Shown here piece after piece: positions 26,932-58,213 of a stretch of 64,000 nucleotides of DNA. The notes below the pieces were generated by a model, which worked only from the letters and a program-made list of their open reading frames with translations, did no database searches and was not told the DNA's origin. The stretch's first letter is position 1; each line of letters begins with the position of its first letter. The translations under genes were made by a program, and so were the position numbers. This DNA comes from Bdellovibrionales bacterium (GTDB lineage Bacteria; Bdellovibrionota; Bdellovibrionia; Bdellovibrionales; UBA1609): NCBI GenBank assembly GCA_965205945.1, contig CBDBIB010000002.1:263999-327998 (forward strand), given 5' to 3'.

Positions 26932-26953
26932 ATTTATACCTCATAAACATTAG

Positions 26954-26969: not shown

Positions 26970-27191
26970 GGTTTAATATGGCAATATTTTCATTTTAAAA
27001 CACTTTGACTGCTTAAAATTGTTACCTCTAAAAACTAAGTAACAGTTTATGACCCCTCTGCGTCCTTTTCCATAAAAGATCAGGGATTAAGCACACTGTA
27101 AAAAAGATGTCTAGTATCAATATTAACCGAGTTTAAGAAACCGCAATTATATTATAAAGTTGAATATATGCCAGGAATACAGGAATTTTGC

Positions 27192-27410: not shown

Positions 27411-27465
27411 TAATATGGATATGGTAACATTTTTATTTTAAAACACATAAAATATTTCTTATTTA

Positions 27466-27972: not shown

Positions 27973-27994
27973 ATTTATACCTCATAAACATTAG

Positions 27995-28010
27995 AGCAAG
28001 GCTTATGCCA
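27995..28010 (-). promoter_or_regulatory. Sigma54 -24/-12 promoter, lipoprotein copy 2
   Basis: TGGCATAAGCCTTGCT. Confidence 0.7.
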
Positions 28011-28139
28011 GGTTTAATATGGCAATATTTTCATTTTAAAACACCTTGATTGCTTAAAATTGTTATCTCTAAAAACTAAGTAACAATTTACGGCTGTAAA
28101 AACTTTTAACACTGAGCTTGAATATGCAAGTAATAGAGG

Positions 28140-28155
28140 TGGTAAAGCTTTTGCA
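28140..28155 (+). promoter_or_regulatory. Putative sigma54 promoter for the divergent lipoprotein gene
   Basis: TGGTAAAGCTTTTGCA with GG-N10-GC spacing. Confidence 0.5.
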
Positions 28156-28181
28156 GTGTAGTTAGAGTATATAATTTTCAT

Positions 28182-28961: not shown

Positions 28962-29025
28962 TTTAATTCCTAGAAAATAGGCAAAACATTTGATAAGCTT
29001 AAGTTTGTAGCTTAGCCTTGATTTT

Positions 29026-30120
29026 ATGAGTTTTATTAATTTAAACCCGAATATTTTAAATATTATATTAGGCTCTAAGTCTATAATAGATATTCCAAAG
29101 CTGTCTATTCACTCAAGAGATGAAGCGATCCAATTTATTTTTACTTATGGTTATGATATTAATAACTATAAAGATGCAAAAATTTTATGGGAAATTCATA
29201 GAAAAGCTATTGAAATTTTAGAAGAAGAAATTCTTGATCTTACAGAAGAGCTTCCCTCAAAAGTAAGAAATAGAGAAGAACTAAAAGATATAACAGATCT
29301 TTTATTAATAGCAAGTTATGCAGATGGATCATTATTACAAAAGTATGGATGTGCAATTTTAAGAGTAATGCATTTAATAATTCATTTAGAGAATGATTTA
29401 TTTACATCTTTTACGGATGACATTCAATATCAGATTTTAAGACCTATAACTGAGCATATTGTGTATAATGAAAGAGGTGCTCAATTTTTAGGTGAAGCTA
29501 AAAAAATAGAGTTAAAGGAATTTTTAGTAAAACCTTTTAAACAGACAAAATCAGGGGTAATAAAGCTTCTTGCCAAAGATGATGTTTTAGCAATGACTTT
29601 GTTAGACAGAGTTGGAGTAAGATTTATTACAAAATCTATTCATGATATTTTTAGAGTGATTCAATACTTTATAGATTATCATTTAATAAGTTTCCCACAA
29701 ACCATAGTAGGTCAGTCAAAAAATATGATTTGTCCTATTGAGATTTTTTTTGAAGCACAAGAGGCTTTTGTGGGTGTTAAGAACGAGGAAGAAGATTTTG
29801 AAAATTTTTCTAAAATATTACATAAAAAATTAGAGAAATGGGCGGTAAAAGGTAATAAGCTTGAAACAAAAAATGAATTTACTGCTGAAAATTTTAAATT
29901 TGTTAAATTTATTAGTCAAAGATTTTTAAATATTGATAGAGGACCTGAAAAAAGTTCATTAAAGTTTTTTTATCCATTTGAGGTTCAAATTATGGATGAG
30001 AAAACTTTTAAAAAAAATGAAGAAACCAATGCTAGTCATTATGCGTATAAAGAAAGGCAAAGAAGAGCTGCAAGGCGTCGTGTTTTGGGCTTTAAAAATG
30101 AAGAAAGTAAATTAAAATGA
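29026..30120 (+). CDS. RelA/SpoT-like nucleotidyltransferase-fold protein (resembles TIGR04552/TIGR04562 families)
   Basis: DRVGVRFIT, FEVQIMD, SHYAYK motifs; family name recalled, not searched. Confidence 0.65.
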   Translation: MSFINLNPNILNIILGSKSIIDIPKLSIHSRDEAIQFIFTYGYDINNYKDAKILWEIHRKAIEILEEEILDLTEELPSKVRNREELKDITDLLLIASYADGSLLQKYGCAILRVMHLIIHLENDLFTSFTDDIQYQILRPITEHIVYNERGAQFLGEAKKIELKEFLVKPFKQTKSGVIKLLAKDDVLAMTLLDRVGVRFITKSIHDIFRVIQYFIDYHLISFPQTIVGQSKNMICPIEIFFEAQEAFVGVKNEEEDFENFSKILHKKLEKWAVKGNKLETKNEFTAENFKFVKFISQRFLNIDRGPEKSSLKFFYPFEVQIMDEKTFKKNEETNASHYAYKERQRRAARRRVLGFKNEESKLK

Positions 30121-30869
30121 GAAATTTAAAGTTATTTTTATCAATTTTTCGAGGTCTTTTTATTGCTTTAAATATGTTGATTTTAGGAGGATTATTTTCA
30201 TTTTTATATTTTATTTTAGGTTATAATATCACATCAAAACTTGGAATTTCTTGGCTTTGGGGGAAACTTTTTATTTGGATTGTCACCTCAAAGCTTATAA
30301 TAATAGGAAAAAAAAATATTCCCCAAAAAGATGGAGCTATTTTTTTATTTTCACATTCAAGCTATTTAGATATTCCAATTCTTTGTGCAACAAAGAATTG
30401 GAAAATTAACTTTGTGGCAAAATCATACTTACTAGATTACCCAGTATTAGGATTTATTATGAAATTAGTTAAAATGATAATTATTTATCCTGATCGAAGA
30501 GAATCAATTAAACAGTATAAGCTAGCTGAGGAAAGACTTAAACAAGGTGAATCTTTTATGATTGCTCCTGAAGGAAGTAGAAGTAGTGGAGAAGAACTTT
30601 TGCCTTTTAAGTCAGGTCCATTTATATTTGCAATGAATGCTAGAGCAGATCTAGTTCCTGTTTTAATTTATGGTTCACATAAGATCTGGCCTAAAAAAGA
30701 TAAATTACCGAATATGAGAAATCTTTTTGGAACAATCTATATTGAATACCTTCCTAAAGTAAGCATCATTGATTTTAAAGAGGAGAATAGAAAAGAAAAA
30801 GCTGAAGAGGTAAGACAAATGATGTTAAAAAAACTTGTTAAATATCAAAAATTAAAATCTATATTTTGA
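30117..30869 (+). CDS. plsC: 1-acyl-sn-glycerol-3-phosphate acyltransferase
   Basis: SHSSYLD, FVAK, APEGSRS, PFKSG. Confidence 0.9.
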   Translation: MRNLKLFLSIFRGLFIALNMLILGGLFSFLYFILGYNITSKLGISWLWGKLFIWIVTSKLIIIGKKNIPQKDGAIFLFSHSSYLDIPILCATKNWKINFVAKSYLLDYPVLGFIMKLVKMIIIYPDRRESIKQYKLAEERLKQGESFMIAPEGSRSSGEELLPFKSGPFIFAMNARADLVPVLIYGSHKIWPKKDKLPNMRNLFGTIYIEYLPKVSIIDFKEENRKEKAEEVRQMMLKKLVKYQKLKSIF

Positions 30870-30898
30870 TTGATATAAATTATAGTAGTGTCATTACA

Positions 30899-30923
30899 AA
30901 AAAGGTGCATATTGCACCTTTTT
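30899..30923. terminator. Bidirectional terminator between plsC and A1
   Basis: AAAAAGGTGCA-tat-TGCACCTTTTT. Confidence 0.85.
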
Positions 30924-30982
30924 ATTATTTAAATCTAATCTAACTGAGTTTAAGTAATCATAAAAAAGCGATTATGTGTTTT

Positions 30983-31573
30983 TTATTCGTTAGCTCCAGC
31001 TTTAATTAATAACTCTACGACTTTAGTGTGACCTTTGATTGTAGCGATTGCAAGAGCTGTATAACCGTTGTTATCTTGAATATTTACATCAGCTTGAGCT
31101 TTAATTAACAACTCTGCTATCTCAGTGTTACCATTAAATGCAGTCCACATAAGAGCTGTTATACCTTGGTAAGTTTTAGCGTTTACATCAGCTTGAGCTT
31201 TAATTAATAAGTCTACGATTTTAGTGTGACCATTGAGTACAGCAATTATAAGAGCTGCGTAACCGTTGTTATCTTCAACATTTACATCAGCTTGAGCTTT
31301 AATTAATAAGTCTACCATTTTAGTGTGACCTTTAAATACCGCAAACATAAGAGCTGTGCCTTCAATTTGATCTTTATTTATAATATAAGAATTAAGGCTA
31401 AAAAGCTCTTTGCAATTAGTTTTATGATTTAAAAATGACTTAAGAGATTTTATGTTATTCTCGTCAATACTTTTTGTTAAAAGTTCTTCACATTTTTTTG
31501 AAGTCATATTTTGTGCTGCAAAAGCACCTACACTTAAAAGTGTTGATACTGTTAAGATGATTAATTTTTTCAT
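30983..31573 (-). CDS. Secreted ankyrin-repeat protein A1 (4 repeats)
   Basis: Signal peptide ending AFA, constant N-cap, GxTALxxA..G....LLIKAQADVN repeats. Confidence 0.95.
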   Translation of the reverse strand: MKKLIILTVSTLLSVGAFAAQNMTSKKCEELLTKSIDENNIKSLKSFLNHKTNCKELFSLNSYIINKDQIEGTALMFAVFKGHTKMVDLLIKAQADVNVEDNNGYAALIIAVLNGHTKIVDLLIKAQADVNAKTYQGITALMWTAFNGNTEIAELLIKAQADVNIQDNNGYTALAIATIKGHTKVVELLIKAGANE

Positions 31574-31730
31574 TGTTTTACTCTCCTTGCTATTGGTTTA
31601 TTTAGTGTCGTTTTTATAACATATTTTTAGTGTTATGTGGGTTAATTTTGTGAAGGTGTGTAAAATTTATAGATCACGGTGTTAAGAAATTAGATAATGT
31701 CTTATGATTTTACAAAACAATATACAATAT

Positions 31731-31759
31731 AAAAAAAGGTGCAATATGCACCTTTTTTT
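31731..31759 (-). terminator. Array-unit terminator after A2
   Basis: GGTGCA-ata-TGCACC flanked by A and T runs. Confidence 0.8.
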
Positions 31760-31816
31760 TATTTAAATCTAATCTAACTGAGTTTAAGTAATCATAAAAA
31801 AGCGATTATGTGTTTT

Positions 31817-32746
31817 TTATTCGTTAGCTTGAGCTTGAATTAATAAATCTATGATTTTAGTGTAGGCGTCGTCTGCAGCGTATGTAGGAGTTTTTTTTCT
31901 AATATTATTTTGAACAGCTACTATAAGAGCTGTTTCTCTAAAATTATTTTTGATATGTAAATTAGCCAAAGCTTTAATTAATAATTCTACGACTTTAGGG
32001 TGACCTTGGCCTGCAGCCATAATAAGAGCTGTGTCTCCAGAAATATTTTGAAGATTTACATCAGCCTGAGCTTTAATTAATAATTCTACGACTTTAGGGT
32101 GACCTTGGCCTGCAGCCATAATAAGAGCTGTGTTATCTTCGTAATTTTGAAGATTTACATCAGCCTGAGCTTTAATTAATAATTCTACGACTTTAGGGTG
32201 ACCAGATTTTGCAGCGTATAAAAGAGCTGTATTACCTTCGTAACTTTGAAAATTTACATTAGCTTGAGCTTTAATTAACAACTCTAGAATTTCAATGTGA
32301 TTAAACCATGCAGCCATAATAAGAGCTGTACTGCCATCATATTTATTTTGGACATTCACATTAGCTTGAGCTTTAATCAACAACTCTACTATTTTAGTGC
32401 GACCATAAAGTGCCCCAATTATAAGAGCTGTTTCACCACGTTTATCTTGAATATTTACATCAGCTTGAGCTTTAATTAATAAGTCTACGATTTTAGTGTG
32501 ACCATTGAATACCGCTAACATAAGAGCTGTGCTTTCTTTTTCATATTTAGTTTTAACATAAGAATTAAGGCTAAAAAGCTCTTTGCAATTAGTTTTATGA
32601 CTTAAAAATGACTTAAGAGATTTTATGTTATTCTCGTCAATACTTTTTGTTAAAAGTTCTTCACATTTTTTTGAAGTCATACCTTGTGCTGCAAAAGCAC
32701 CTACACTTAAAAATGTTAATACTGTTAAGATGATTAATTTTTTCAT
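31817..32746 (-). CDS. Secreted ankyrin-repeat protein A2 (7 repeats; 13 aa insertion in the last)
   Basis: Same architecture as A1. Confidence 0.95.
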   Translation of the reverse strand: MKKLIILTVLTFLSVGAFAAQGMTSKKCEELLTKSIDENNIKSLKSFLSHKTNCKELFSLNSYVKTKYEKESTALMLAVFNGHTKIVDLLIKAQADVNIQDKRGETALIIGALYGRTKIVELLIKAQANVNVQNKYDGSTALIMAAWFNHIEILELLIKAQANVNFQSYEGNTALLYAAKSGHPKVVELLIKAQADVNLQNYEDNTALIMAAGQGHPKVVELLIKAQADVNLQNISGDTALIMAAGQGHPKVVELLIKALANLHIKNNFRETALIVAVQNNIRKKTPTYAADDAYTKIIDLLIQAQANE

Positions 32747-32898
32747 TGTTTTAACTCTCCTTGTTACTGGATTACTTAAGTTGTTTTTTAATAGGCCCTT
32801 AGTATTATGTCGATTACTTTTGTGAAAGTGTGTAAAATTTATAGATCACGGCGTTAAGGAATTAGATAGTGCCTTATGATTTTAGAAAACAATATAAA

Positions 32899-32923
32899 AA
32901 AAAGGTGCATATTACACCTTTTT
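32899..32923 (-). terminator. Array-unit terminator after A3
   Basis: Hairpin variant that retains a G-U pair on the minus-strand RNA. Confidence 0.75.
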
Positions 32924-32981
32924 ATTATTTAAATTTAACCTAACTTACTTAAGTAACCATAAAAAAGCGATTATGTATTTT

Positions 32982-34370
32982 TTATTCTTTAGCTTGAGCT
33001 TTAATTAATAAGTCTACGATTTCAGTGTTACCGAGGCTTGTAGCGATTATAAGAGCTGTGTCACCAACTTCATCTTGAACATTTACATCAGCATGAGCTT
33101 TAATTAATAAGTCTACGACTTCAGTGTGACCGTGGCTTACAGCCCACATAAGAGCTGTGTCACCAAATTTATTTTGAATATTTACATCAGCTTGAGCTTT
33201 AATTAATAATTCTACGACTTTAGGGTGACCTTGGCCTGCAGCCATAATAAGAGCTGTGTCTCCAGAAATATTTTGAAGATTTACATCAGCCTGAGCTTTA
33301 ATTAACAACTCTACGATTTCAGTGTGACCGCGGTCTGCAGCCATAATAAGAGCTGTACTGCCATCATATTTATGTTGGACATCTACATCAGCTTGAGCTT
33401 TAATTAATAATTCTACGACTTTAGGGTGACCTTGGCCTGCAGCCATAATAAGAGCTGTGTCTCCAGAAATATTTTGAAGATTTACATCAGCCTGAGCTTT
33501 AATTAACAACTCTACGATTTCAGTGTGACCGTGGCTTACAGCCCACATAAGAGCTGTGTCACCAAATTTATTTTGAATATTTACATCAGCTTGAGCTTTA
33601 ATTAATAATTCTACGACTTTAGGGTGACCTTGGCCTGCAGCCATAATAAGAGCTGTGTCTCCAGAAATATTTTGAAGATTTACATCAGCCTGAGCTTTAA
33701 TTAACAACTCTACGATTTCAGTGTGACCGCGGTCTGCAGCCATAATAAGAGCTGTACTGCCATCATATTTATGTTGGACATCTACATCAGCTTGAGCTTT
33801 AATTAATAACTCTACGACTTTAGTGTGACCTTCGATTGTAGCGATTATAAGAGCTGTGTTATCAAATGCATTTTGAATATTTACATCAGCTTGAGCTTTA
33901 ATTAATAAGTCTACCATTTTAGTGTTACCATTGAATGCAGCCCATATAAGAGCTGTATCTCCGGGAAGATTTTGAACATTTACATCAGCATGAGCTTTAA
34001 TTAATAAGTCTACGACTTCAGTGTGACCGTGGCTTACAGCCCACATAAGAGCTGTGTCACCATATTTATTTTGAACATCTACATCAGCATGAGCTTTAAT
34101 TAATAACTCTACGACTTCAGTGTTACCGAGGCTTGTAGCCCACATAAGAGCTGTGTCTTCATTTTCATCTTCGGTTTTAATATAAGAATTAAGGTTAAAA
34201 AGCTCTTTGCAATTAGTTTTATGATTTAAAAATGACTCAAGAGATTTTATGTTATTCTCGTCAATACTTTTTGTTAAAAGTTCTTCACATTTTTTTGAAG
34301 TCATATTTTGTGCTGCAAAAGCACCTACACTTAAAAGTGTTGATACTGTTAAGATGATTAATTTTTTCAT
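32982..34370 (-). CDS. Secreted ankyrin-repeat protein A3 (12 repeats)
   Basis: Same architecture as A1; internal duplication at 399 bp offset. Confidence 0.95.
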   Translation of the reverse strand: MKKLIILTVSTLLSVGAFAAQNMTSKKCEELLTKSIDENNIKSLESFLNHKTNCKELFNLNSYIKTEDENEDTALMWATSLGNTEVVELLIKAHADVDVQNKYGDTALMWAVSHGHTEVVDLLIKAHADVNVQNLPGDTALIWAAFNGNTKMVDLLIKAQADVNIQNAFDNTALIIATIEGHTKVVELLIKAQADVDVQHKYDGSTALIMAADRGHTEIVELLIKAQADVNLQNISGDTALIMAAGQGHPKVVELLIKAQADVNIQNKFGDTALMWAVSHGHTEIVELLIKAQADVNLQNISGDTALIMAAGQGHPKVVELLIKAQADVDVQHKYDGSTALIMAADRGHTEIVELLIKAQADVNLQNISGDTALIMAAGQGHPKVVELLIKAQADVNIQNKFGDTALMWAVSHGHTEVVDLLIKAHADVNVQDEVGDTALIIATSLGNTEIVDLLIKAQAKE

Positions 34371-34520
34371 TGTTTTGTTCTCCTTGTTATTGGATTACTT
34401 AGTGCCGTTTTTATAACATATTTTTAGTGTTATGTGGGTTAATTTTGTGAAAGTATGTAAAATTTATAGATTACGGCGTTAAGGAATTAGATAGTGTCTT
34501 ATGATTTTACAAAACAATAT

Positions 34521-34549
34521 AAAAAAAGGTGCATGTTGCACCTTTTTTT
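34521..34549 (-). terminator. Array-unit terminator after A4
   Basis: GGTGCA-tgt-TGCACC flanked by A and T runs. Confidence 0.8.
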
Positions 34550-34604
34550 ATTTAAATTTAACCTAACTTACCTAAGTAACCATAAAAAAGCGATTATGTA
34601 TTTT

Positions 34605-34997
34605 TTATTCTTTAGCTTGAGCTTTAATTAATAAGTCTACGATTTTAGTGTGACCATTGAATGCAGCCCACATAAGAGCTGTGTCACCATATTTATTTTG
34701 AACATCTACATCAGCATGAGCTTTAATTAATAAGTCTACGATTTTAGTGTGACCATTGAGTACAGCAATTATAAGAGCTGCGCTTTCAGTTTTATCTTCG
34801 ATTTTAATATAAGAATTAAGGTTAAAAAGCTCTTTGCAATTAGTTTTATGATTTAAAAATGACTCAAGAGATTTTATGTTATTCTCTTTGACACTTTTTG
34901 TTAAAAGTTCTTCACATTTTTTTGAAGTCATACCTTGTGCTGCAAAAGCACCTACACTTAAAAATGTTAATACTGTTAAGATGATTAATTTTTTCAT
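34605..34997 (-). CDS. Secreted ankyrin-repeat protein A4 (2 repeats)
   Basis: Same architecture as A1. Confidence 0.92.
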   Translation of the reverse strand: MKKLIILTVLTFLSVGAFAAQGMTSKKCEELLTKSVKENNIKSLESFLNHKTNCKELFNLNSYIKIEDKTESAALIIAVLNGHTKIVDLLIKAHADVDVQNKYGDTALMWAAFNGHTKIVDLLIKAQAKE

Positions 34998-35148
34998 TGT
35001 TTTGTTCTCCTTGTTATTGGATTACTTAGTGCCGTTTTTATAACATATTTTTAGTGTTATGTGGGTTAATTTTGTGAAAGTGTGTAAAATTTATAGATTA
35101 CGGCATTAAGGAAGTTAGATAGTGTCTTATGATTTTACAAAACAATAT

Positions 35149-35175
35149 AAAAAAAGTGCAGTTGCACCTTTTTTT
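35149..35175 (-). terminator. Array-unit terminator after A5 (shortened hairpin)
   Basis: GTGCA-gt-TGCAC flanked by A and T runs. Confidence 0.65.
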
Positions 35176-35232
35176 ATTTAAATCTAATCTAAAATTAGTT
35201 TAAGTAACCATAAAAAAGCGATTATGTATTTT

Positions 35233-36024
35233 TTATTCTTTAGCTTGAGCTTTAATTAATAAGTCTACGACTTTAGTGTGACCTTCGATTGTAGCGATTA
35301 TAAGAGCTGTGTCACCAAATTCATTTTGAATATTTACATCAGCTTGAGCTTTAATTAATAAGTCTACGATTTCAGTGTTACCGAGGCTTGTAGCCCATAT
35401 AAGAGCTGTATCTCCGGGAATATTTTGAACATTTACATCAGCATGAGCTTTAATTAATAAGTCTACGACTTCAGTGTTACCGTGGCTTACAGCCCACATA
35501 AGAGCTGTGCCACCAAATTCATTTTGAATATTTACATCAGCTTGAGCTTTAATTAATAAGTCTACGATTTCAGTGTTACCATTGTATGCAGCCCACATAA
35601 GAGCTATTACACCTTGGTAAGCTTTAGCATTTACATCAGCATGAGCTTTAATTAACAACTCTACGATTTCAGTGTGACCGCGGTCTGCAGCCATAATAAG
35701 AGCTGTACTGCCATCATATTTATGTTGGACATCTACATCAGCTTGAGCTTTAATTAATAATTCTACCATTTTAGTGTTACCATTAAGTGCAGCCCACATA
35801 AGAGCTGTGTCTTCATTTTCATCTTCGATTTTAATATAAGAATTAAGGTTAAAAAGCTCTTTGCAATTAGTTTTATGATTTAAAAATGACTCAAGAGATT
35901 TTATGTTATTCTCTTTGACACTTTTTGTTAAAAGTTCTTCACATTTTTTTGAAGTCATATTTTGTGCTGCAAAAGCACCTACACTTAAAAGTGTTAATAC
36001 TGTTAAGATGATTAATTTTTTCAT
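35233..36024 (-). CDS. Secreted ankyrin-repeat protein A5 (6 repeats)
   Basis: Same architecture as A1. Confidence 0.95.
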   Translation of the reverse strand: MKKLIILTVLTLLSVGAFAAQNMTSKKCEELLTKSVKENNIKSLESFLNHKTNCKELFNLNSYIKIEDENEDTALMWAALNGNTKMVELLIKAQADVDVQHKYDGSTALIMAADRGHTEIVELLIKAHADVNAKAYQGVIALMWAAYNGNTEIVDLLIKAQADVNIQNEFGGTALMWAVSHGNTEVVDLLIKAHADVNVQNIPGDTALIWATSLGNTEIVDLLIKAQADVNIQNEFGDTALIIATIEGHTKVVDLLIKAQAKE

Positions 36025-36175
36025 TGTTTTGTTCTCCTTGTTATTGGATTACTTAGTGTCGTTTTTATAACATATTTTTAGTGTTATGTGGGTTAATTTT
36101 GTGAAAGTGTGTAAAATTTATAGATTACGGCATTAAGGAAGTTAGATAGTGTCTTATGATTTTACAAAACAATAT

Positions 36176-36202
36176 AAAAAAAGTGCAGTTGCACCTTTTT
36201 TT
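36176..36202 (-). terminator. Array-unit terminator after A6 (shortened hairpin)
   Basis: Same sequence as 35149-35175. Confidence 0.65.
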
Positions 36203-36259
36203 ATTTAAATCTAATCTAAAATTAGTTTAAGTAACCATAAAAAAGCGATTATGTATTTT

Positions 36260-36949
36260 TTATTCTTTAGCTTGAGCTTTAATTAATAAGTCTACGACTT
36301 TAGTGTGACCTTCGATTGTAGCGATTGCAAGAGCTGTATAACCGGCGTTATCTTGAATATTTACATCAGCTTGAGCTTTAATTAACAATTCTACTATCTT
36401 AGTGTTACCATTAAGTGCAGCCCACATAAGAGTTGTGACACCATATTTATTTTGAAAATTTACATCAGCTTGAGCTTTAATCAATAACCTTACCATTTTA
36501 GTGTTACCGTGGCTTGCAGCCCACATAAGAGCTGTGTCACCAAATTTATTTTGAAAATTTACATCAGCTTGAGCTTTAATTAATAATTCTACGATTTCAG
36601 TGGTACCATTGAATGCAGCCCACATAAGAGCTGTGTTACCATATTTATTTTGAACATTTACATCAGCTTGAGCTTTAATTAATAATTCTACCATTTTAGT
36701 GTTACCATTAAGTGCAGCCCACATAAGAGCTGCGCTTTCAATTTTATCTTCGATTTTAATATAAGAATTAAGGTTAAAAAGCTCTTTGCAATTAGTTTTA
36801 TGATTTAAAAATGACTTAAGAGATTTTATGTTATTCTCTTTGACACTTTTTGTTAAAAGTTCTTCACATTTTTTTGAAGTCATACCTTGTGCTGCAAAAG
36901 CACCTACACTTAAAAATGTTAATACTGTTAAGATGATTAATTTTTTCAT
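36260..36949 (-). CDS. Secreted ankyrin-repeat protein A6 (5 repeats)
   Basis: Same architecture as A1. Confidence 0.95.
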   Translation of the reverse strand: MKKLIILTVLTFLSVGAFAAQGMTSKKCEELLTKSVKENNIKSLKSFLNHKTNCKELFNLNSYIKIEDKIESAALMWAALNGNTKMVELLIKAQADVNVQNKYGNTALMWAAFNGTTEIVELLIKAQADVNFQNKFGDTALMWAASHGNTKMVRLLIKAQADVNFQNKYGVTTLMWAALNGNTKIVELLIKAQADVNIQDNAGYTALAIATIEGHTKVVDLLIKAQAKE

Positions 36950-37098
36950 TGTTTTATTCCTTTTTATTGGATTATTTAGTGTCGTTTTTTAATAGACTCT
37001 TAAGTACTATGTCGATTACTTTTGTGAAAGTGTGTAAAATTTATAGATTACGGCATTAAGGAAGTTAGATAGTGTCTTATGATTTTACAAAACAATAT

Positions 37099-37125
37099 AA
37101 AAAAAGTGCAGTTGCACCTTTTTTT
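37099..37125 (-). terminator. Array-unit terminator after A7 (shortened hairpin)
   Basis: Same sequence as 35149-35175. Confidence 0.65.
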
Positions 37126-37182
37126 ATTTAAATCTAATCTAAAATTAGTTTAAGTAACCATAAAAAAGCGATTATGTATTTT

Positions 37183-37872
37183 TTATTCTTTAGCTCCAGC
37201 TTTAATTAATAATTTTACGATTGTATCGTAGCCGTTATTTTTAGCAATTGCAAGGGTTGTGTAACCGTAGTAATCTCGAACATTTACATCAGCTTGAGCT
37301 TTAATTAATAAGTCTATCATTTCAGTGTTACCATTGGATGCAGCCCACATAAGAGCTATTTCACCTAAGTAAGTTTTAGTATTTACATCAGCTTGAGCTT
37401 TAATCAATAACCTTACCATTTTAGTGTTATCGCGGAGTACAGCAACTATAAGAGGTGTATAACCGGCGCTATCTTGAATATTTACATCAGCTTGAGCTTT
37501 AATTAACAAATTTGCGATTTCAGTATTACCATAGTATGCAGTCCACATAAGAGCTGTGTCACCAAATTCATTTTGAAAATTTATATCGGCTTGAGCTTTA
37601 ATTAATAAGTCTACCATTTTAGTTCGACTGAGTTTTGTAGCCCATATAAGAGCTGTGCTTTCAATTTTATCTTCGGTTTTAATATAAGAATTAAGGTTAA
37701 AAAGCTCTTTGCAATTAGTTTTATGATTTAAAAATGACTCAAGAGATTTTATGTTATTCTCTTTGACACTTTTTGTTAAAAGTTCTTCACATTTTTTTGA
37801 AGTCATATTTTGTGCTGCAAAAGCACCTACACTTAAAAATGTTGATACTGTTAAGATGATTAATTTTTTCAT
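37183..37872 (-). CDS. Secreted ankyrin-repeat protein A7 (5 repeats)
   Basis: Same architecture as A1. Confidence 0.95.
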   Translation of the reverse strand: MKKLIILTVSTFLSVGAFAAQNMTSKKCEELLTKSVKENNIKSLESFLNHKTNCKELFNLNSYIKTEDKIESTALIWATKLSRTKMVDLLIKAQADINFQNEFGDTALMWTAYYGNTEIANLLIKAQADVNIQDSAGYTPLIVAVLRDNTKMVRLLIKAQADVNTKTYLGEIALMWAASNGNTEMIDLLIKAQADVNVRDYYGYTTLAIAKNNGYDTIVKLLIKAGAKE

Positions 37873-38020
37873 TGTTTTACTCTCCTTGTTACTGGATTAC
37901 TTAAGTTGTTTTTTAATAGGTCCTTAGTATTATGTCGATTAATTTTGTGAAGGTGTGTAAAATTTATAGATCACGGCGTTAAGGAATTAGATAATGTCTT
38001 ATAATTTTACAAAACAATAT

Positions 38021-38051
38021 AAAAAAAAGGTGCAACATGCACCTTTTTTTT
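38021..38051 (-). terminator. Array-unit terminator after A8
   Basis: GGTGCA-aca-TGCACC flanked by A and T runs. Confidence 0.8.
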
Positions 38052-38109
38052 TATTTAAATCTAATCTAAAATTAGTTTAAGTAACCATAAAAAAGCGATT
38101 ATGTATTTT

Positions 38110-38601
38110 TTATTCTTTAGCTTGAGCTTTAATTAATAAGTCTACGACTTCAGTGTTACCAAGGCTTATAGCCCACATAAGAGCTGTATCTCCGGAAATA
38201 TTTTGAACATTTACATCAGCATGAGCTTTAATTAATAATTCTACGATTTCAGTGGTACCATTGAATGCAGCCCACATAAGAGCTGTGTTACCATATTTAT
38301 TTTGAACATTTACATCAGCTTGAGCTTTAATTAATAATTCTACCATTTTAGTGTTACCATTAAGTGCAGCCCACATAAGAGCTGCGCTTTCAATTTTATC
38401 TTCGATTTTAATATAAGAATTAAGGTTAAAAAGCTCTTTGCAATTAGTTTTATGATTTAAAAATGACTCAAGAGATTTTATGTTATTCTCTTTGACACTT
38501 TTTGTTAAAAGTTCTTCACATTTTTTTGAAGTCATACCTTGTGCTGCAAAAGCACCTACACTTAAAAATGTTAATACTGTTAAGATGATTAATTTTTTCA
38601 T
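38110..38601 (-). CDS. Secreted ankyrin-repeat protein A8 (3 repeats)
   Basis: Same architecture as A1; 5' part near-identical to A6. Confidence 0.95.
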   Translation of the reverse strand: MKKLIILTVLTFLSVGAFAAQGMTSKKCEELLTKSVKENNIKSLESFLNHKTNCKELFNLNSYIKIEDKIESAALMWAALNGNTKMVELLIKAQADVNVQNKYGNTALMWAAFNGTTEIVELLIKAHADVNVQNISGDTALMWAISLGNTEVVDLLIKAQAKE

Positions 38602-38751
38602 TGTTTTATTCCTTGTTACTGGATTACTTAAGTTGTTTTTTAATAGGCCCTTAGTATTATGTCGATTACTTTTGTGAAAGTGTGTAAAATTTATAGATTA
38701 CGGCGTTAAGGAATTAGATAGTGCCTTATAATTTTAGAAAACAATATAAAA

Positions 38752-38776
38752 AAAAAGGTGCATATTACACCTTTTT
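38752..38776 (-). terminator. Array-unit terminator after A9
   Basis: GGTGCATATTACACC variant (G-U pair on the minus strand). Confidence 0.75.
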
Positions 38777-38835
38777 ATTATTTAAATTTAACCTAACTTA
38801 CCTAAGTAACCATAAAAAAAGCGATTATGTATTTT

Positions 38836-39528
38836 TTATTCTTTAGCTCCAGCTTTAATTAATAATTTTACGATTGTATCGTAGCCGCCATTTATAGCAA
38901 TTATAAGAGCTGTATAACCATGGTAGTGATCTTGAATATTTACATCAGCTTGAGCTTTAATTAATAAGTCTACGATTTCAGTGTTACCATTGAATGCAGC
39001 CCACATAAGAGCTGTATCTCCGGGAATATTTTGAACATTTACATCAGCTTGAGCTTTAATTAATAAGTCTACCATTTTAGTATAATCTTGGAGTGCAGCG
39101 ATTGTAAGAGCTGTGTTACCATATTTAGTTTCAACATTTAAATCAGCTTGAGCTTTAATTAATAAGTCTAGAATTTCAATGTGATTAAACCATACAGCCA
39201 TAATAAGAGCTGTGTTACCATATTTATTTTGAAGATTTACATCAGCTTGAGCTTTAATTAATAACTCTACCATTTTAGTTCGACCGAGTTTTGTAGCCCA
39301 CATAAGAGCTGTGTCTTCATTTTCATCTTCGTTTTTAATATAAGAATTAAGGTTAAAAAGCTCTTTGCAATTAGTTTTATGATTTAAAAATGACTCAAGA
39401 GATTTTATGTTATTCTCGTCAATACTTTTTGTTAAAAGTTCTTCACATTTTTTTGAAGTCATATTTTGTGCTGCAAAAGCACCTACACTTAAAAGTGTTG
39501 ATACTGTTAAGATGATTAATTTTTTCAT
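38836..39528 (-). CDS. Secreted ankyrin-repeat protein A9 (5 repeats)
   Basis: Same architecture as A1. Confidence 0.95.
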   Translation of the reverse strand: MKKLIILTVSTLLSVGAFAAQNMTSKKCEELLTKSIDENNIKSLESFLNHKTNCKELFNLNSYIKNEDENEDTALMWATKLGRTKMVELLIKAQADVNLQNKYGNTALIMAVWFNHIEILDLLIKAQADLNVETKYGNTALTIAALQDYTKMVDLLIKAQADVNVQNIPGDTALMWAAFNGNTEIVDLLIKAQADVNIQDHYHGYTALIIAINGGYDTIVKLLIKAGAKE

Positions 39529-39678
39529 TGTTTTACTCTCCTTGTTGTTGAGTTACTTAGTGTCGTTTTTATAACATATTTTTAGTGTTGTGTGGGTTAA
39601 TTTTGTGAAAGTATGTAAAATTTATAGATTACGGCGTTAAGGAATTAGATAGTGTCTTATAATTTTAAAAAACAATAT

Positions 39679-39704
39679 AAAAAAAGTGCATATTGCACCT
39701 TTTT
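39679..39704 (-). terminator. Array-unit terminator after A10
   Basis: GTGCA-tat-TGCAC flanked by A and T runs. Confidence 0.7.
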
Positions 39705-39763
39705 ATTATTTAAATTTAACCTAACTTACCTAAGTAACCATAAAAAAAGCGATTATGTATTTT

Positions 39764-40122
39764 TTATTCTTTAGCTCCAGCTTTAATTAATAATTTTACG
39801 ATTGTATCGTAGCCGCCATTTATAGCAATTATAAGAGCTGTATAACCATGGTAGTGATCTTGAATATTTACATCAGCTTGAGCTTTAATTAATAAGTCTA
39901 GAATTTCAATGTGATTAAACCATACAGCCATAATAAGAGCTGTGTCACCATATTTATTTTGAACATTTACATCAGCTTGAGCTTTAATCAATAATCTTAC
40001 CATTTTAGTGTTATCGCGGAGTACAGCAGCTATAAAAGGTGTATAACCGGGGCTATCTTGAATATTTACATCAGCTTGAGCCTTAATTAACAATTCTACC
40101 ATTTTAGCATTACCATTGAGTG
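39764..40122 (-). pseudogene. 5'-truncated ankyrin gene A10 (~3.5 repeats, no signal peptide or N-cap)
   Basis: Homology starts mid-repeat (LNGNAKMVELL) shortly after an in-frame TAA at 40130-40132; no array RBS. Confidence 0.85.
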
Positions 40123-40253
40123 TATAATCTTAAAAAAACTTATCTTTAAGTCTCTTTTTATTTGTTTAATATTCGTAATAACTACTTACTGACGTGACCA
40201 AGCCTATGAATTAAGTTAAAATTTTCTTTAAAAAATTTAGATACGAGGTTTAT

Positions 40254-41105
40254 ATGAAAATTCAAAGTGTTGGTGTTGTTGGATCTGGTCAGATGGGAAA
40301 TGGTATTGCACAAGTTTGTGCAGCTCATGGTAATTCAGTTGTAATGTATGATATATCCTTAGAGGCTTTACAAAAAGCTATGGTGACGATTTTAAAATCA
40401 TGTAATAAGATTATTCAAAAAGAAAGAATGACTGATGTTGAAAAAAATGATCTTCTTTTAAATATCAAGACTTCTCAAAATATCAAAGATTTAAAAGATT
40501 GTGATATTATTATTGAAGCAGTTACCGAAAATATAGATTTAAAACTTAAAATTTTTAAAAATTTAGACGAGATTGTAAAAAAAGATGCTTATTTATGTTC
40601 AAACACATCTTCTATATCAATTACAAAAATTGCAGCAATTACAAAAAGGCCAGATCTTGTTTGTGGTTTACACTTTATGAATCCTGTTCCCTTAATGAAA
40701 TTAGTTGAAGGCATTAAAGGTCTTCAAACAAGTGAGGAGACATTTAAAATAGTAAGATCTTTTGTAGAATCTTTAGGAAAAACCTTTGTTCATGCAAATG
40801 ATTACCCTGGATTTATTGTAAATAGAATTTTAATGCCTATGATTAATGAGGCTATTTATACTTTATACGAAGGTGTTGGGAAAGTTAAAGATATTGATAC
40901 CTCTATGAAATTAGGAACAAATCAACCAATGGGTCCTTTAAGCTTAGCAGATTTTATTGGTTTAGACACATGCCTTGCTATTATGAATGTTCTTCACAAA
41001 GATTTAGGGGATTCTAAGTATAGGCCTTGTCCATTATTAAAGAACTATGTTCAGGCAGGTTGGTTAGGCAGAAAAACAAAAAAAGGATTTTATAGTTATG
41101 AATAA
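40254..41105 (+). CDS. hbd: 3-hydroxybutyryl-CoA dehydrogenase
   Basis: [37 protein letters not shown]. Confidence 0.9.
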
Positions 41106-41883: not shown

Positions 41884-44800
41884 ATGTCAATGAGCAAAAA
41901 AATATACTACAAACCTAAGAATCCAGTTCGTATTGTCACCGCAACATCATTGTTTGATGGTCATGATGCTGCAATTAATATTATGAGAAGAATCTTACAG
42001 GATATGGGAACTGAGGTTATTCATCTTGGGCACAATAGATCTGTTGCTGATGTTGTTAAGGCTGTTTTACAAGAAGGAGCTCAAGGTATAGCTGTAAGCT
42101 CATATCAAGGTGGTCATATTGAGTATTTTAAATACATGAAAGATCTTTTAGATGCTCATGGGGCCTCCTATGTGAAAATCTTTGGAGGCGGTGGTGGTGT
42201 GATTATCCATGAGGAGAAAAAACTTTTAGAAGACTATGGTATTGTTAAAATTTTTCATCCTGAGGATGGACGAAAGTTAGGCCTTGAAGGAATGATTGAA
42301 ATAATCATTAAAGAGTCTGACTTTAATATTTCAGATGTAGCTAAAGTAGCCTTAAGTCCTAAGGAGGAGATTTATAATCTAGGTTTATTGCCCCATAGAG
42401 ATATAGGTCTACTTATTAATGATAAAGAGCTTAAAAAAAATAGTGTAGATAAATGGGCTAAGCAAGTTAAATCTAAATTATATAGAAATAAAATAAGAAA
42501 ACCTTTAGTTTTAGGACTAACAGGAACCGGTGGAGCTGGAAAATCAAGTTTGATTGATGAGCTTCTTCAAAGGTTTTTAAATTTCTATGAAGACAAAAAA
42601 ATTGCAGTAGTTTGTGTTGATCCTTCAAAAAGAAAAACAGGTGGAAGTCTTTTAGGTGATAGAATTAGAATGAATTCGCTATCTAGAGATAGGGTTTATA
42701 TGAGATCTTTAGCCTCTCGTGGTTCTGGCACTGAAATATCTGGAAAACTTCCACAAGTCTTAGAAGAATTAAAAAAACAATCCTTTGATTTAATTATAGC
42801 AGAAAGCTCAGGAATTGGTCAGGCAAATACGGCTATAACTAAGGTAAGTGATTTAAGCTTATATGTAATGACATCAGAATTTGGTGCACAGAGCCAGCTT
42901 GAGAAAATTGATATGATAGATTTTGCAGATTTTATTGCTATTAATAAAGCAGATAGGCGTGGTTCTGAAGATGCGTTAAGAGATGTTAAGAGACAATATA
43001 TTAGATCTAGAAAACTTTTTTATAAAAATCAAGACGATCTTCCTGTTCATTTAACACAAGCTTCAAACTTTAATGATCAAGGGGTAAATAATCTTTTTAA
43101 AAACATTATAGAATTATTAATAAAAAAAGATACCTTTAAAAGATGGAAGCCTTTAAAGGAAATATCTAAAGGTGAAATTAAAAAAAATATTATTCCATCT
43201 CATCGACAAAATTATTTAACTGAAATTTCAAATACAATAAACACTTATCATAAAAATACAAAAATTGATAAAAAAAGCTTTTCTAATTTAGGGGCTGTGA
43301 AACTCTTAAAAAAAAACGGTGTTAAAAACCTAGATAATTTTGAAAAAGAGCTTTTAATTAAGAATAAAAAAAATGAACTCTTTAATAAAGTTGAAGAATG
43401 GGAGTCTTTAATAAACAAATATAAACAAGATGAATTTTCATATATTGTTAGAGGTAAAGAAATAAAGCAACCTTTAACTTCTAAAACCTTAAGTGGAATA
43501 TCTATTCCAAGAGTGGTGCCTCCTAATATTACGGATTGGGGGGATAGATATGAATTTTTAAGAAAAGAGAGTTTTTCAGGAGAATTTCCTTATACTGCAG
43601 GAGTTTTTCCTCTTAAGAGAAAGAGTGAGGATCCTGGGCGTCAATTTGCTGGGGAAGGTTCACCTGAAAGAACAAATAAGAGATTTCATTATTTATCTAA
43701 AAATGAAAAGGCTAAAAGATTATCTACGGCTTTTGATTCTGTAACCCTTTACGGGCAAGCCCCTCATTTAAGACCAGATATTTACGGAAAAGTAGGGGAA
43801 TCAGGTGTTAGTATTGCAAGTTTAGAAGACATGAAACGTTTATATAAAGGTTTTGATCTTTGTGATCCATCAACTTCCGTAAGTATGACTATTAATGGAC
43901 CAGCACCAATTCTTTTAGCTTATTTTATGAACACAGCTATTGATCAGTATATTGAAAAAAAAGAAATAAAGCTTGGGCGAAAGCTTTGCATAGAAGAATT
44001 TACAAACGCAAGACTTAGGGCCATGCAACTAGTACGTGGTACTGTTCAAGCTGATATTTTAAAAGAAGATCAAGGGCAGAATACATGTATTTTTTCAACA
44101 GACTTTGCTTTAAAAATGATGGGAGATATTCAACAGTATTTTATTAATAATAGTATTAAAAATTTTTATTCTGTAAGTATTTCAGGTTATCATATTGCTG
44201 AAGCTGGAGCAAATCCAATTACACAACTATCATTAACTTTAAGCAATGCATTTACATATGTTGAATACTATTTATCTAGAGGAATGAAGATTGACGAGTT
44301 TGCACCAAGCTTATCATTTTTCTTTAGTAATGGATTAGACACAGAGTATTCTGTTATTGGTAGAGTTGCTAGAAGAATTTGGGCCATAGCAATGAAGGAT
44401 CTGTATAATGCTAACTCAAGGTCTCAAAAACTAAAATATCATATTCAAACCAGTGGAAGGTCTCTTCATGCTCAAGAAATTCAGTTTAATGATATAAGAA
44501 CAACGTTGCAGGCTTTGATTGCTATTAATGACAATTGTAATTCTTTACATACAAATGCATATGATGAAGCGATTACAACTCCTACAGAGGAATCTGTAAG
44601 ACGTGCACAAGCAATACAGCTTATTATTAACAAAGAGCTTGGAAGCACTAAAAACGAGAATACTATTCAGGGCTCATATTTTTACGAATGGCTTACAGAC
44701 AATGTAGAAGAGCAAGTTCTAAAAGAATTTACTCGTATTTCAGACCGTGGTGGTGTGTTAGGGGCTATGGAAACTCAATATCAAAGAGGCAAGATTCAAG

Positions 44801-58199: not shown

Positions 58200-58213
58200 G
58201 AAAGGATTTAATA

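Follow-up and report, generated by a model that had tools for sequence, protein, structure and literature searches.

A tandem array of ankyrin-repeat genes with constant leaders and hypervariable predicted binding surfaces in a Bdellovibrionales bacterium

Results

Organization of the ankyrin-repeat array

The window analyzed here, a 64,000-nucleotide stretch of DNA from a Bdellovibrionales bacterium, carries on its minus strand a tandem array (30983-40129) of nine complete ankyrin-repeat genes and one 5'-truncated gene. The complete genes, A1-A9, follow a common plan in which a Sec-type leader precedes a 45-aa N-cap with two invariant cysteines and a run of ankyrin repeats. When repeats were counted by anchoring on LLI[KQ]A, A1-A9 were found to contain 4, 7, 12, 2, 6, 5, 5, 3, and 5 repeats, respectively, and the whole array 53 repeat units, with the headless A10 contributing three whole repeats and a 13-aa piece. 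The features of the locus are as follows:

18816-20021, minus strand: VKOR-DsbA fusion, within the window and outside the array
30117-30869, plus strand: left border gene, acyltransferase (PF01553)
30899-30923, minus strand (listed on the plus strand): array-closing terminator-like hairpin downstream of A1; 11 pairs, flanked by A and T runs
30983-31573, minus strand: A1, 196 aa, signal, N-cap, and 4 repeats
31817-32746, minus strand: A2, 309 aa, 7 repeats, with a 12-aa insertion in the last; the most diverged copy
32982-34370, minus strand: A3, 462 aa, 12 repeats, including an internal duplication of four repeats (399 bp)
34605-34997, minus strand: A4, 130 aa, 2 repeats
35233-36024, minus strand: A5, 263 aa, 6 repeats
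36260-36949, minus strand: A6, 229 aa, 5 repeats
37183-37872, minus strand: A7, 229 aa, 5 repeats
38110-38601, minus strand: A8, 163 aa, 3 repeats
38836-39528, minus strand: A9, 230 aa, 5 repeats; the copy chosen for folding
39764-40129, minus strand: A10 remnant (ORF 39764-40102, 112 aa), 5'-truncated, about 3.5 repeats
31574-31816, 32747-32981, 34371-34604, 34998-35232, 36025-36259, 36950-37182, 37873-38109, 38602-38835, and 39529-39763, minus strand: spacers between array genes
40254-41105, plus strand: right border gene, 3-hydroxyacyl-CoA dehydrogenase; upstream sequence conserved in the sister species from about 40160 on

The initial annotation of this DNA had described nine complete genes and one headless gene arranged head to tail, which the open reading frames bear out almost to the base, and its repeat counts, including about 3.5 for A10, agree exactly with ours. 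It had placed the limits of the array at 30899 and 40122; the first holds and coincides with the hairpin of the last gene, but the second must be moved, because an in-frame stop followed by DYTLNGNAK lies ahead of the first ATG of A10, so that homology starts at about 40129. A10 lacks a leader, N-cap, ribosome-binding site, and conserved upstream spacer, and the last repeats of A10 and A9 have the same DNA sequence.

In all 10 array proteins, ankyrin-type families alone exceed the curated Pfam cut-offs, the remaining listed families being either below cut-off or underlying the ankyrin matches. In each of the nine conserved spacers (233-243 bp), the terminator-like hairpin and T-run of the preceding gene are accompanied by a conserved region and by AAGGAG, a ribosome-binding site found ahead of the ATG of every full gene. 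The hairpin at 30899-30923 is of the same sequence type. No sigma-70-like promoter within the spacers passed the promoter scan; the hairpins and ribosome-binding sites nonetheless suggest that each full gene forms its own transcription unit. The array is far above chance expectation, as Tandem Repeats Finder reports 99-bp periods in all array genes and there are 15 terminator-like sites compared with 3.6 ± 1.8 in shuffles.

A constant leader and a two-cysteine cap

The nine complete genes begin MKKLIILTV(S/L)T(L/F)LSVGAFA-AQ. Read by eye, this leader resembles a Sec/SPase I signal in its n-region, h-region, and AxA motif and lacks a lipobox cysteine, and residues 1-19 have a pLDDT below 50 in the AlphaFold model. 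These features, together with the ankyrin-only Pfam matches, point to Sec-exported, noncatalytic ankyrin scaffolds, as the initial annotation had proposed. The leaders are 94-100% identical and mosaic (pS 0.014), and all four allele combinations occur at codons 10 and 12.

C28 and C54 are invariant in all 17 N-caps aligned from two genomes. The VKOR-DsbA fusion in the window indicates periplasmic machinery for disulfide formation, a point relevant to the two-cysteine cap; a C28-C54 disulfide would probably form in an oxidizing periplasm. A cluster encoding GspC, D, E, F, G, J, and K lies on the same contig as the array.

Repeats as shuffled cassettes

Mean pairwise identity among the repeats is 58% for protein and 76% for nucleotide sequence. 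When cassette types are defined at ≥92% nucleotide identity, 11 types of two to four copies each take in 31 of the 51 repeats, leaving 20 singletons. Copies of a type mostly occur in different genes, positions, and orders, although one type has both copies in a single gene. With letters for types and dots for other repeats, A3 reads. B C H D A B A D A B. and A5 reads F D. B C H. This pattern suggests that repeat diversity arises largely through shuffling, with the repeats behaving as cassettes moved between genes.

Predicted structure and the location of variable residues

The AlphaFold model of A9 (pLDDT 88.6, pTM 0.84) was compared with the PDB, and all matches listed in the top 50 ranks are designed ankyrin-repeat proteins, nearly all of them DARPins. 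Among those listed, the DARPin-sized matches show 38-44% identity with an rmsd of 1.2-2.0 Å. DARPin-equivalent columns were mapped by alignment to DARPin D12, whose internal repeats differ at six positions that we take to be the library positions 2, 3, 5, 13, 14, and 33.

Across 51 aligned repeats, entropy peaks at columns 5 (3.25 bits), 16 (3.10), 17 (3.05), and 4 (2.65), followed by columns 8 (2.44), 1 (2.36), and 13 (2.04), whereas L25, L26, I27, K28, A29, and A31 are invariant. The top five entropy columns account for five of the six DARPin-equivalent columns, in the β-turn and at the end of helix 1, so the variation is concentrated at the predicted binding surface as had been claimed. This match is partly built in, because the DARPin positions were chosen as unconserved and exposed in natural repeats, and only the ω test described below goes further. 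In ankyrin families generally, high variability is expected at the DARPin-equivalent positions.

Selection on the repeats

Estimates of ω were obtained with a custom fixed-sites script on 99-nt sequences, using a fixed FastTree topology and one shared synonymous rate. A one-ratio codon model gave ω = 1.00, and a two-class model fit far better (LRT 201.9). At the DARPin-equivalent columns, specified a priori, ω was 3.95 versus 0.66 elsewhere (LRT 70.3, p ≈ 5e-17), in line with the elevated dN at paratope sites that the initial annotation had anticipated, and a column set derived from the sister species gave ω = 3.63 (LRT 62.7). The LLIKA and A31 codons have ω = 0 despite synonymous changes, and the LLIKA core is never altered. 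The 18 closest repeat pairs differ by 12 synonymous versus 68 nonsynonymous changes. When parsimony was applied with synonymous counts taken at the hypervariable codons themselves, dN/dS was 0.75. Clear recombination, a fixed topology, a shared synonymous rate, and the 99-nt length can each inflate ω tests. Strong AT codon bias restricts synonymous diversity in the array.

A lineage-specific locus in a reduced genome

In all four congeners the orthologs of the two genes that flank the array, the acyltransferase gene and the hbd gene, are adjacent and the array is absent, which marks it as a lineage-specific insertion of apparently recent origin. The initial annotation had held that an array identical in distant strains would speak against diversification; what we see at this locus is absence. 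A leader/N-cap profile found 5 representatives among 1.84 billion proteins, and a word search of 5.8 billion proteins matched only the window's own proteins, suggesting that the leader/cap module is all but confined to the genus.

The genome is 1.87 Mb in 5 contigs (97% complete), with no match to flagellin. Among genomes of the family, at least 12 Ank_2 matches occur in 11 of the 17 that are ≤2.0 Mb versus 2 of the 47 larger ones; the rank correlation of genome size with Ank_2 is ρ = -0.23 (p = 0.065), where matches rather than genes are counted and kin are nonindependent. One family member carries, within 20 kb, 17 ankyrin genes with a constant leader and similar hypervariable positions, and comparable arrays recur among the reduced genomes of this family. 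Several array-gene copies in the sister species are interrupted by IS elements or stop codons.

Discussion

A putative repertoire of exported binders

We favor, with a probability of roughly one half, the interpretation of the array as a rapidly evolving set of genes for exported binders whose targets are host or prey proteins. Each product would consist of a cleavable signal peptide, a constant N-cap probably stapled by its disulfide, and 2-12 near-consensus repeats with no enzymatic domain. New specificities would arise by two routes, namely in-register recombination between repeats or genes, which would shuffle cassettes and alter repeat number, and positive selection on residues of the concave β-turn/helix-1 face, while gene conversion would hold the leader, cap, and spacers near-identical. 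The proteins would have an extracytoplasmic role, in the periplasm or after release through the type II secretion system of the genome. There they would bind proteins of a second organism living together with this reduced-genome bacterium, presumably a eukaryotic host or a prey cell, and thereby block or hijack them.

The main rival, which we consider possible but unlikely, holds that the array supplies a set of inhibitors or immunity proteins that remain in the periplasm and neutralize envelope-targeting enzymes, whether the cell's own secreted lytic enzymes, as for Bd3460 of Bdellovibrio bacteriovorus, or the toxins of competitors; with toxins as targets, it would amount to a homogeneous polyimmunity locus based on an Imm-ank-like fold. 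Bd3460 is described as having exactly this architecture, a signal peptide then ankyrin repeats (PMC4686830), and both ankyrin immunity proteins and strain-variable tandem polyimmunity loci have been described (PMC3482391). The array is also uninterrupted, in a single orientation, and the sole such locus in the genome, and changing toxins would likewise select for diversification. However, none of the 44 other ORFs in the window encodes a toxin or lytic enzyme by Pfam. The Bd3460 analogy drawn in the initial annotation fails on gene linkage, as there is no S13 endopeptidase gene near the array; the single S13 gene of the genome is on a different contig and is of the PBP4/DacC type, as are its six PDB matches, among which Bd3459 does not appear. 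Polyimmunity loci are typically polycistronic with short spacers, whereas the array has 233-243-bp spacers with terminator-like hairpins, and no recombinase gene adjoins it. Finally, self-protection should be conserved, but all four congeners lack the array at this locus.

Neutral amplification under relaxed constraint, yielding a drifting gene family without a specific binding function, would account for the overall ω near 1, the truncation of A10, and the disrupted copies in the sister species. We give it little credence, because across 9.2 kb none of the nine full copies is disrupted and each has a ribosome-binding site, leader, cysteine pair, and terminator, the two-class model is strongly preferred, and core codons show ω = 0 with surface sites well above, rather than near, 1.

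Similarly improbable is programmed or contingency variation, in which recombination using the array as its substrate would frequently alter the repertoire that a population expresses, with the promoterless A10 serving as a silent donor cassette, as in pilS or vls. The mosaic leaders and spacers, the cassettes common to several genes, and this truncated edge copy fit such a scheme, and metagenome contigs contain unit junctions absent from the assembly; these contigs, however, are short, of low depth, from one study, and may derive from a related strain. All nine full genes retain their own upstream region, leaving no single expression site, and no reverse transcriptase, invertase, or recombinase is present among the window ORFs. 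The likeness to lamprey VLRs raised in the initial annotation is conceptual only; we found no sign of either somatic or programmed assembly.

A mis-joined or wrongly expanded assembly is very improbable: the region is repetitive and the public contigs compared are short, none spanning the array interior, but the units are placeable (76% mean nucleotide identity between repeats, distinct spacer haplotypes), independent short contigs bridge both borders without mismatch (30566-30954, 30566-31100, and 39999-40563), every reading frame is intact, the genome is in only 5 contigs, and single-contig relatives have similar arrays.

Comparison with known systems

Like the array proteins, Bd3460 is reported to carry about six ankyrin repeats behind a signal peptide, without further domains, and it acts in the periplasm by steric occlusion of its target enzyme (PMC4686830). 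It is, however, described as a single conserved gene adjoining its target gene, bd3459, whereas the array comprises ten rapidly evolving paralogs with no linked peptidase gene and is missing from the locus in congeners.

Polyimmunity loci, as outlined by Zhang et al. 2012 (PMC3482391), resemble the array in being tandem, same-strand, and uninterrupted runs of binder paralogs that are equivalent in function and vary from one close relative to another, and they include an ankyrin immunity family. The array differs in its long, terminator-bearing spacers, in the signal peptide on every complete copy, and in having neither an adjacent recombinase gene nor a toxin gene among the window ORFs.

DARPins share the near-consensus 33-residue repeats and the layout of a cap plus internal repeats; among the matches listed, they are the best structural matches of the A9 model, and of the six positions at which the internal repeats of D12 differ from one another, five are sites of variation in the array. 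DARPins, though, are synthetic and cytoplasmic. The array proteins have no separate C-cap, as they stop after helix 2 of the last repeat; their LLIKAQADVN has Gln for the usual Gly, their N-cap has two cysteines, and they vary additionally at helix-1 position 13 and at columns 19, 22, and 24.

The close parallels are already in print, in the signal-peptide ankyrin expansions of host-associated bacteria and in the ANK repeats of fungal NOD-like receptors. The former, described for sponge symbionts, including reduced Bdellovibrionota MAGs, and for Dependentiae such as Chromulinavorax destructans, likewise involve many small Sec-signal ankyrin-only proteins in reduced, low-GC, nonflagellated genomes, with presumed secretion and action on a eukaryotic host (PMC6561590, PMC9944714). 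Within their community, the sponge Bdellovibrionota are reported to lead in number of Ank domains (PMC9944714), and signal peptides are reported on 78% of the 98 ANK proteins of Chromulinavorax (PMC6561590). Those reports tally domains or genes; neither shuffled cassettes nor positive selection at particular sites is described in them, nor is a single tandem array whose genes share a constant leader and two-Cys cap. The leader/cap module of the array, moreover, seems confined to its genus, and for this bacterium association with a host is a supposition.

The fungal ANK repeats (and likewise TPR and WD repeats) are described as mutually similar, varying in number through recombination within and between loci, and under positive selection at a few concave inner-helix/β-hairpin positions (Dyrka et al. 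2014, PMC4986451). They differ in being C-terminal sensor domains of intracellular NACHT/NB-ARC proteins, whereas the array proteins are stand-alone, bacterial, and predicted to be exported, and the array, at a mean of 58% protein and 76% nucleotide identity, falls below the ≥85% internal identity used for the fungal repeats. By analogy, the array and the fungal repeats nevertheless appear to be under the same evolutionary regime.

The ankyrin array and its units

Ten ankyrin genes, A1 to A10 from left to right, stand head to tail on one strand between two border genes. The features of the region are as follows.

30117 to 30869, acyltransferase, left border gene
30899 to about 40129, minus strand, ankyrin array of ten head-to-tail genes, from open reading frames
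40254 to 41105, 3-hydroxyacyl-CoA dehydrogenase, right border gene

The complete genes, A1 to A9, encode proteins of 196, 309, 462, 130, 263, 229, 229, 163, and 230 residues, and the 5′-truncated A10 encodes 112 residues counted from its first ATG. Counted by their LLI[KQ]A motif, the repeats of A1 to A9 number 4, 7, 12, 2, 6, 5, 5, 3, and 5, exactly the numbers reported in the initial annotation, and A10 contributes three whole repeats and one fragment. All ten proteins match Ank, Ank_2, Ank_3, Ank_4, and Ank_5 above the curated Pfam cut-offs, with an Ank score of 354 bits over 12 stretches in A3, and no non-ankyrin family exceeds those cut-offs in any of them. Every complete protein begins with the same Sec-type leader (MKKLIILTV.T.LSVGAFA/AQ, its features judged by eye), followed by a 45-residue N-terminal cap that carries Cys28 and Cys54, both invariant in all 17 caps aligned from this genome and one congener. 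A10, a remnant lying at one end of the array, retains upstream of its ATG nine further homologous codons before an in-frame stop; comparison with the other units reveals in it no ribosome-binding site, leader, or conserved upstream spacer.

The nine spacers are 233 to 243 bp long and about 90% conserved. Each has a hairpin and T-run immediately after the preceding stop codon and an AAGGAG ribosome-binding site ahead of the next ATG, and the region holds 15 terminator-like sites compared with 3.6 ± 1.8 in shuffles. On account of these elements, we take each array gene to be transcribed on its own and not as part of an operon. A scan for sigma-70 promoters found none that was convincing in the spacers (37 hits versus 48 in shuffles). 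We also considered a FliA-type promoter around the conserved GCCGTAAT and dropped it because the genome, which is 97% complete, has no match to flagellin.

Fold and likeness to DARPins

We modeled A9 with AlphaFold2 from an alignment of nine paralogs and relatives, obtaining a pLDDT of 88.6 and a pTM of 0.84. Residues 1 to 19 are disordered in the model, as expected of a leader; the cap forms two main helices and a short third, and each repeat contributes a helix pair. The model and its Foldseek matches have the stacked helix-turn-helix and β-hairpin solenoid of the ankyrin superfamily. The best PDB matches are ankyrin-repeat proteins, with target-normalised TM-scores up to 0.92, and the matches listed among the top 50 ranks are without exception designed ankyrin-repeat proteins, almost all DARPins; those of DARPin size align at 38 to 44% identity with an rmsd of 1.2 to 2.0 Å. 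In the sense of these matches, the label "DARPin-like" initially given to the scaffold is fair. Array proteins differ from DARPins in having no separate C-cap, stopping after helix 2 of the last repeat, and in a framework, LLIKAQADVN, with Gln in place of the usual Gly.

In the alignment with A9, the internal repeats of DARPin D12 differ from one another at positions matching columns 2, 4, 5, 8, 16, and 17 of our 33-residue repeat alignment, and five of these six DARPin-equivalent columns are the five most variable columns of the array. The variable positions of D12 are, we assume, library positions 2, 3, 5, 13, 14, and 33. The paratope of DARPins is described as formed by defined surface positions (PMC8683736). 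By itself, this overlap is weak evidence because the positions were chosen as unconserved in natural repeats.

Variation and selection in the repeats

Across the 51 aligned repeats, variability is highest at columns 5, 16, 17, 4, and 8 (3.25 to 2.44 bits), then at columns 1 and 13, and residues L25, L26, I27, K28, A29, and A31 do not change at all. Pairwise per-codon pN/pS is uninformative at the variable codons because of multiple hits, and we replaced it with parsimony, counts in closest pairs, and a likelihood model. Parsimony on a FastTree topology of the 47 distinct repeats yields 77.6 synonymous and 326.4 nonsynonymous changes, a global dN/dS of 1.12, and a dN of 0 in the LLIKAxA core despite 16 synonymous changes there. 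In the 18 closest repeat pairs, which differ by 1 to 8 changes, 12 changes are synonymous versus 68 that are not.

For the likelihood analysis, we used a self-written fixed-sites codon model with a single shared synonymous rate. Its one-ratio ω is 1.00, and ω is 3.27 at the six most variable columns versus 0.46 at the remainder. Refitting with the DARPin-equivalent columns, a set not chosen after seeing the data, gave 3.95 versus 0.66 elsewhere (LRT 70.3, p about 5e-17), and a set taken from the sister species, its six columns of highest variability, gave 3.63 (LRT 62.7). Taken site by site, ω exceeds 1 at columns 16, 5, 8, 17, and 4 (2ΔlnL 14–53). Values of 3.6 to 3.95 at these concave-face sets bear out the earlier expectation that dN would be raised at paratope sites. 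The ω tests are qualified by short sequences, a fixed topology, evident recombination, and AT-biased codon usage, and the parsimony dN/dS is 0.75 when synonymous counts are taken at the hypervariable codons themselves; diversifying selection on the repeats is supported but not proven.

Cassette shuffling and homogenisation

Of the 51 repeats, 31 fall into 11 cassette types with 2 to 4 copies each (at least 92% nucleotide identity), and 20 are singletons. Most types recur in different genes, positions, and orders (A3:. B C H D A B A D A B.; A5: F D. B C H; A8: F E C), and A3 contains an internal duplication of four repeats spanning 399 bp. The 5′-most 195 nt of the nine complete genes, by comparison, are 94 to 100% identical (pS 0.014). 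Variable codons are few in this stretch; each has two alleles, combined in a mosaic fashion, such that all four allele combinations of leader codons 10 and 12 are present, and the spacers have the same mosaic pattern. These patterns point to frequent recombination or gene conversion between units, a process that homogenises the leader, cap, and regulatory parts and leaves diversity in the repeats. The first and last repeats seem to be position-specific and exempt from shuffling, since the first repeat has Glu instead of Gly at column 7, in the β-turn, in all nine genes, and six of the ten last repeats (A1, A5, A6, A7, A9, and A10) share an I/V-x-D/N...TALxIA signature. Among the 44 other open reading frames (ORFs) of the window, we detected no reverse transcriptase, invertase, or recombinase (Pfam E ≤ 1e-5), and by the content of the window the array does not qualify as a diversity-generating retroelement or other programmed diversifier.

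Contigs from three DNA sequencing runs (one study, two samples), which probably include the sample behind the window assembly, are short and of low depth; they agree with both array borders and are uninformative on its interior. Some contig junctions and loose ends mismatch the assembly, strain variants and graph artefacts being indistinguishable among them. Contigs of two runs, X1 and X3, continue past a unit terminator with the same 30 letters, absent from the window (30925, 39706), and the joints 31536>37924 and 39491>37924 share the same 11 extra letters. Such odd joints may point to unit variants beyond those assembled, carried either in the population or by a related strain.

Origin and distribution

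All four congeners compared have the orthologues of the flanking genes 160 to 270 bp from each other, and no ankyrin gene intervenes; on this synteny, the array was inserted among housekeeping genes specifically in this lineage. From about 40160 onward, the sequence is again homologous to that of the sister species, G003. That species has related genes at other loci, encoding a signal peptide, the same two-Cys cap, and repeats, with at most 48% identity and a different framework (KALIDAGADVN). Several of its ankyrin genes are cut by IS elements or bear stops, and its repeats vary at the same columns as those of the array. Three ankyrin loci of G003 (L009, L010, and L012) are full of mobile elements and contain an identical 327-aa transposase-like ORF (4508–5491, 8007–8990, and 4162–5145, respectively).

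A profile of the leader and cap found five representatives in 1.84 billion proteins; this genome and G003 supply two each, and the fifth is an 83-aa fragment. A word-based search of 5.8 billion proteins returned nothing beyond the window's own proteins. Within the genome, 25 of 27 Ank_2 matches fall in the array; the remaining two are one weak hit and a putative cytoplasmic glutaminase–ankyrin fusion. The latter, the sole strong ankyrin match outside the array, is a 519-aa ORF at 553 kb on contig 1 (C1; L015:2033-3592, minus strand), with a glutaminase-like body by eye, C-terminal ankyrin repeats, and no signal peptide. Elsewhere on contig 1 (C1:209088-209657; L014:589-1158), two tandem ORFs of 81 and 98 aa have no ankyrin repeats and carry a homologous signal peptide and two-Cys N-cap, 51 to 55% identical to those of the array; these may be what is left of a second array, or else a subfamily consisting of caps alone.

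To the right of the array, positions 41884 to 45144 (plus strand) encode a 1086-aa protein in which a B12-binding domain is fused with a MeaB-type GTPase and a methylmalonyl-CoA-mutase domain. Its layout is IcmF-like, and its gene is downstream of hbd and crotonase genes. Pfam assigns no family (E ≤ 1e-5) to 12 of the 44 ORFs outside the array (in stretches 3328–5490, 5571–7292, 17487–18737, 26425–30120, 45050–46297, 47465–48370, and 56742–60211). They include proteins of 720 and 573 aa, and three conserved Pfam-less genes lie directly left of the array's border gene.

Arrays across the family

We scanned 81 same-family genomes for Ank_2, removing 17 that were under 90% complete and keeping 64. 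At least 12 matches occur in 11 of 17 genomes of 2.0 Mb or less, compared with 2 of 47 larger ones; the rank correlation with genome size is weak (ρ −0.23, p 0.065), and the counts are of matches rather than genes among nonindependent kin. The genome studied here measures 1.87 Mb versus 2.0 to 4.5 Mb in most relatives. Two relatives with reduced genomes have arrays built alike. In G073, a 20-kb stretch holds 17 tandem ankyrin genes that share a leader (MKIFLISIFF...), encode 188 to 588 aa, and are most variable at positions matching the DARPin-variable ones; G052 has eight leader-bearing ankyrin genes within 13 kb. Leader and framework differ from lineage to lineage, and across the family the occurrence of such arrays goes with genome reduction. 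The G073 array lies at C1:1277000-1296999 (L040) of a 1.6-Mb genome, in which Ank_2 matches extend to about 1316219, over about 40 kb.

To the boldest reading of these arrays, we assign a probability of roughly 0.35. Reduced-genome members of the family would carry germline "binder libraries," tandem arrays of exported ankyrin genes with a constant leader, where cassettes exchanged in register, along with positive selection acting on the concave face, would go on producing new specificities for host or prey proteins. The present lineage, G003, and G073 (three genomes, two genera), as well as G052 by its ORF layout only, would each have built an array from its own leader and framework, with the two-Cys N-cap a natural adaptation to oxidising compartments.

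Function of the array proteins

The array proteins would be exported, their caps disulfide-bonded, and their repeats would bind proteins of another organism. The window encodes a fusion of VKOR with a DsbA-like thioredoxin domain (18816–20021, minus strand), probably a periplasmic disulfide-forming enzyme, and the genome has a type II secretion cluster (GspC, D, E, F, G, J, and K). Small, low-GC, nonflagellated sponge-associated Bdellovibrionota are described as having the most Ank domains in their community (PMC9944714), and signal peptides are reported on 78% of 98 ANK proteins of Chromulinavorax (PMC6561590). The present genome resembles such host-associated secreted-ankyrin cases in having nine signal-bearing ankyrin-only genes within 1.87 Mb. 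A search for an ATP/ADP translocase gave no match, and since its controls gave none either, this blank carries no weight.

Alternatively, the array could be a bank of inhibitors conferring self-immunity, and this explanation remains serious because Bd3460 is described with the same architecture as the array proteins (PMC4686830) and both ankyrin immunity proteins and polyimmunity loci are documented (PMC3482391). However, the genome's only S13 peptidase match (C1:197628-198812) is unlinked to the array, has PDB matches of the PBP4/DacC type, and has no ankyrin match alongside, and the long, terminator-bearing spacers fit the polyimmunity pattern poorly. We prefer a foreign target because the array is young, absent from congeners, fast-evolving, and unlinked to genes for lytic enzymes or toxins.

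Should this reading prove right, the array would offer a compact natural experiment on the making of new binding specificities from a repeat scaffold, combining a fixed core, a handful of sites evolving at three to four times the synonymous rate, and modular shuffling. It would also mark this small-genome lineage as likely living in close contact with another organism and the array proteins as candidate molecules for that contact. Protein engineers seeking DARPin-type binders able to fold in the periplasm or extracellularly might be interested in such presumably exported, consensus-like ankyrins with a probable disulfide-stapled cap.

Comparison with known systems

Secreted ankyrin expansions are already known from host-associated bacteria. 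What appears new is that tandem arrays with a constant leader are combined with a two-Cys cap, cassette shuffling, and positive selection measurable on the concave face; the occurrence of such a design in bacteria and its recurrence across a family of reduced genomes appear new as well. The literature that we searched contains no description of such arrays in this lineage or family, although supplementary tables of the sponge papers may list such genes.

Like Bd3460, the array proteins consist of a signal peptide followed by ankyrin repeats only. They differ from that type in linkage, as the window has no S13 gene for a bd3459-type DD-endopeptidase, and in synteny, which is conserved for Bd3460 while the array is missing from its locus in four of four congeners. 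With homogeneous polyimmunity loci (Zhang et al. 2012), the array shares same-orientation tandem paralogs without intervening toxin genes; an Imm-ank family exists, but the window ORFs include no toxin partner, and in place of short polycistronic gaps there are spacers of 233 to 243 bp with terminator-like hairpins.

The closest evolutionary regime is that described for the ANK repeats of fungal NLRs (PMC4986451). Array proteins contain ankyrin families only and are not fused to NACHT or NB-ARC, and their repeats, at mean pairwise identities of 58% (protein) and 76% (nucleotide), fall short of the internal repeat identity of at least 85% over 100 aa that marks highly conserved fungal repeats. 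They share with the fungal proteins variation in repeat number, here from 2 to 12, and selection on the concave face (ω 3.6–3.95). If the boldest reading is true, binder libraries would parallel this fungal NLR repeat regime in bacteria and outside the cell.
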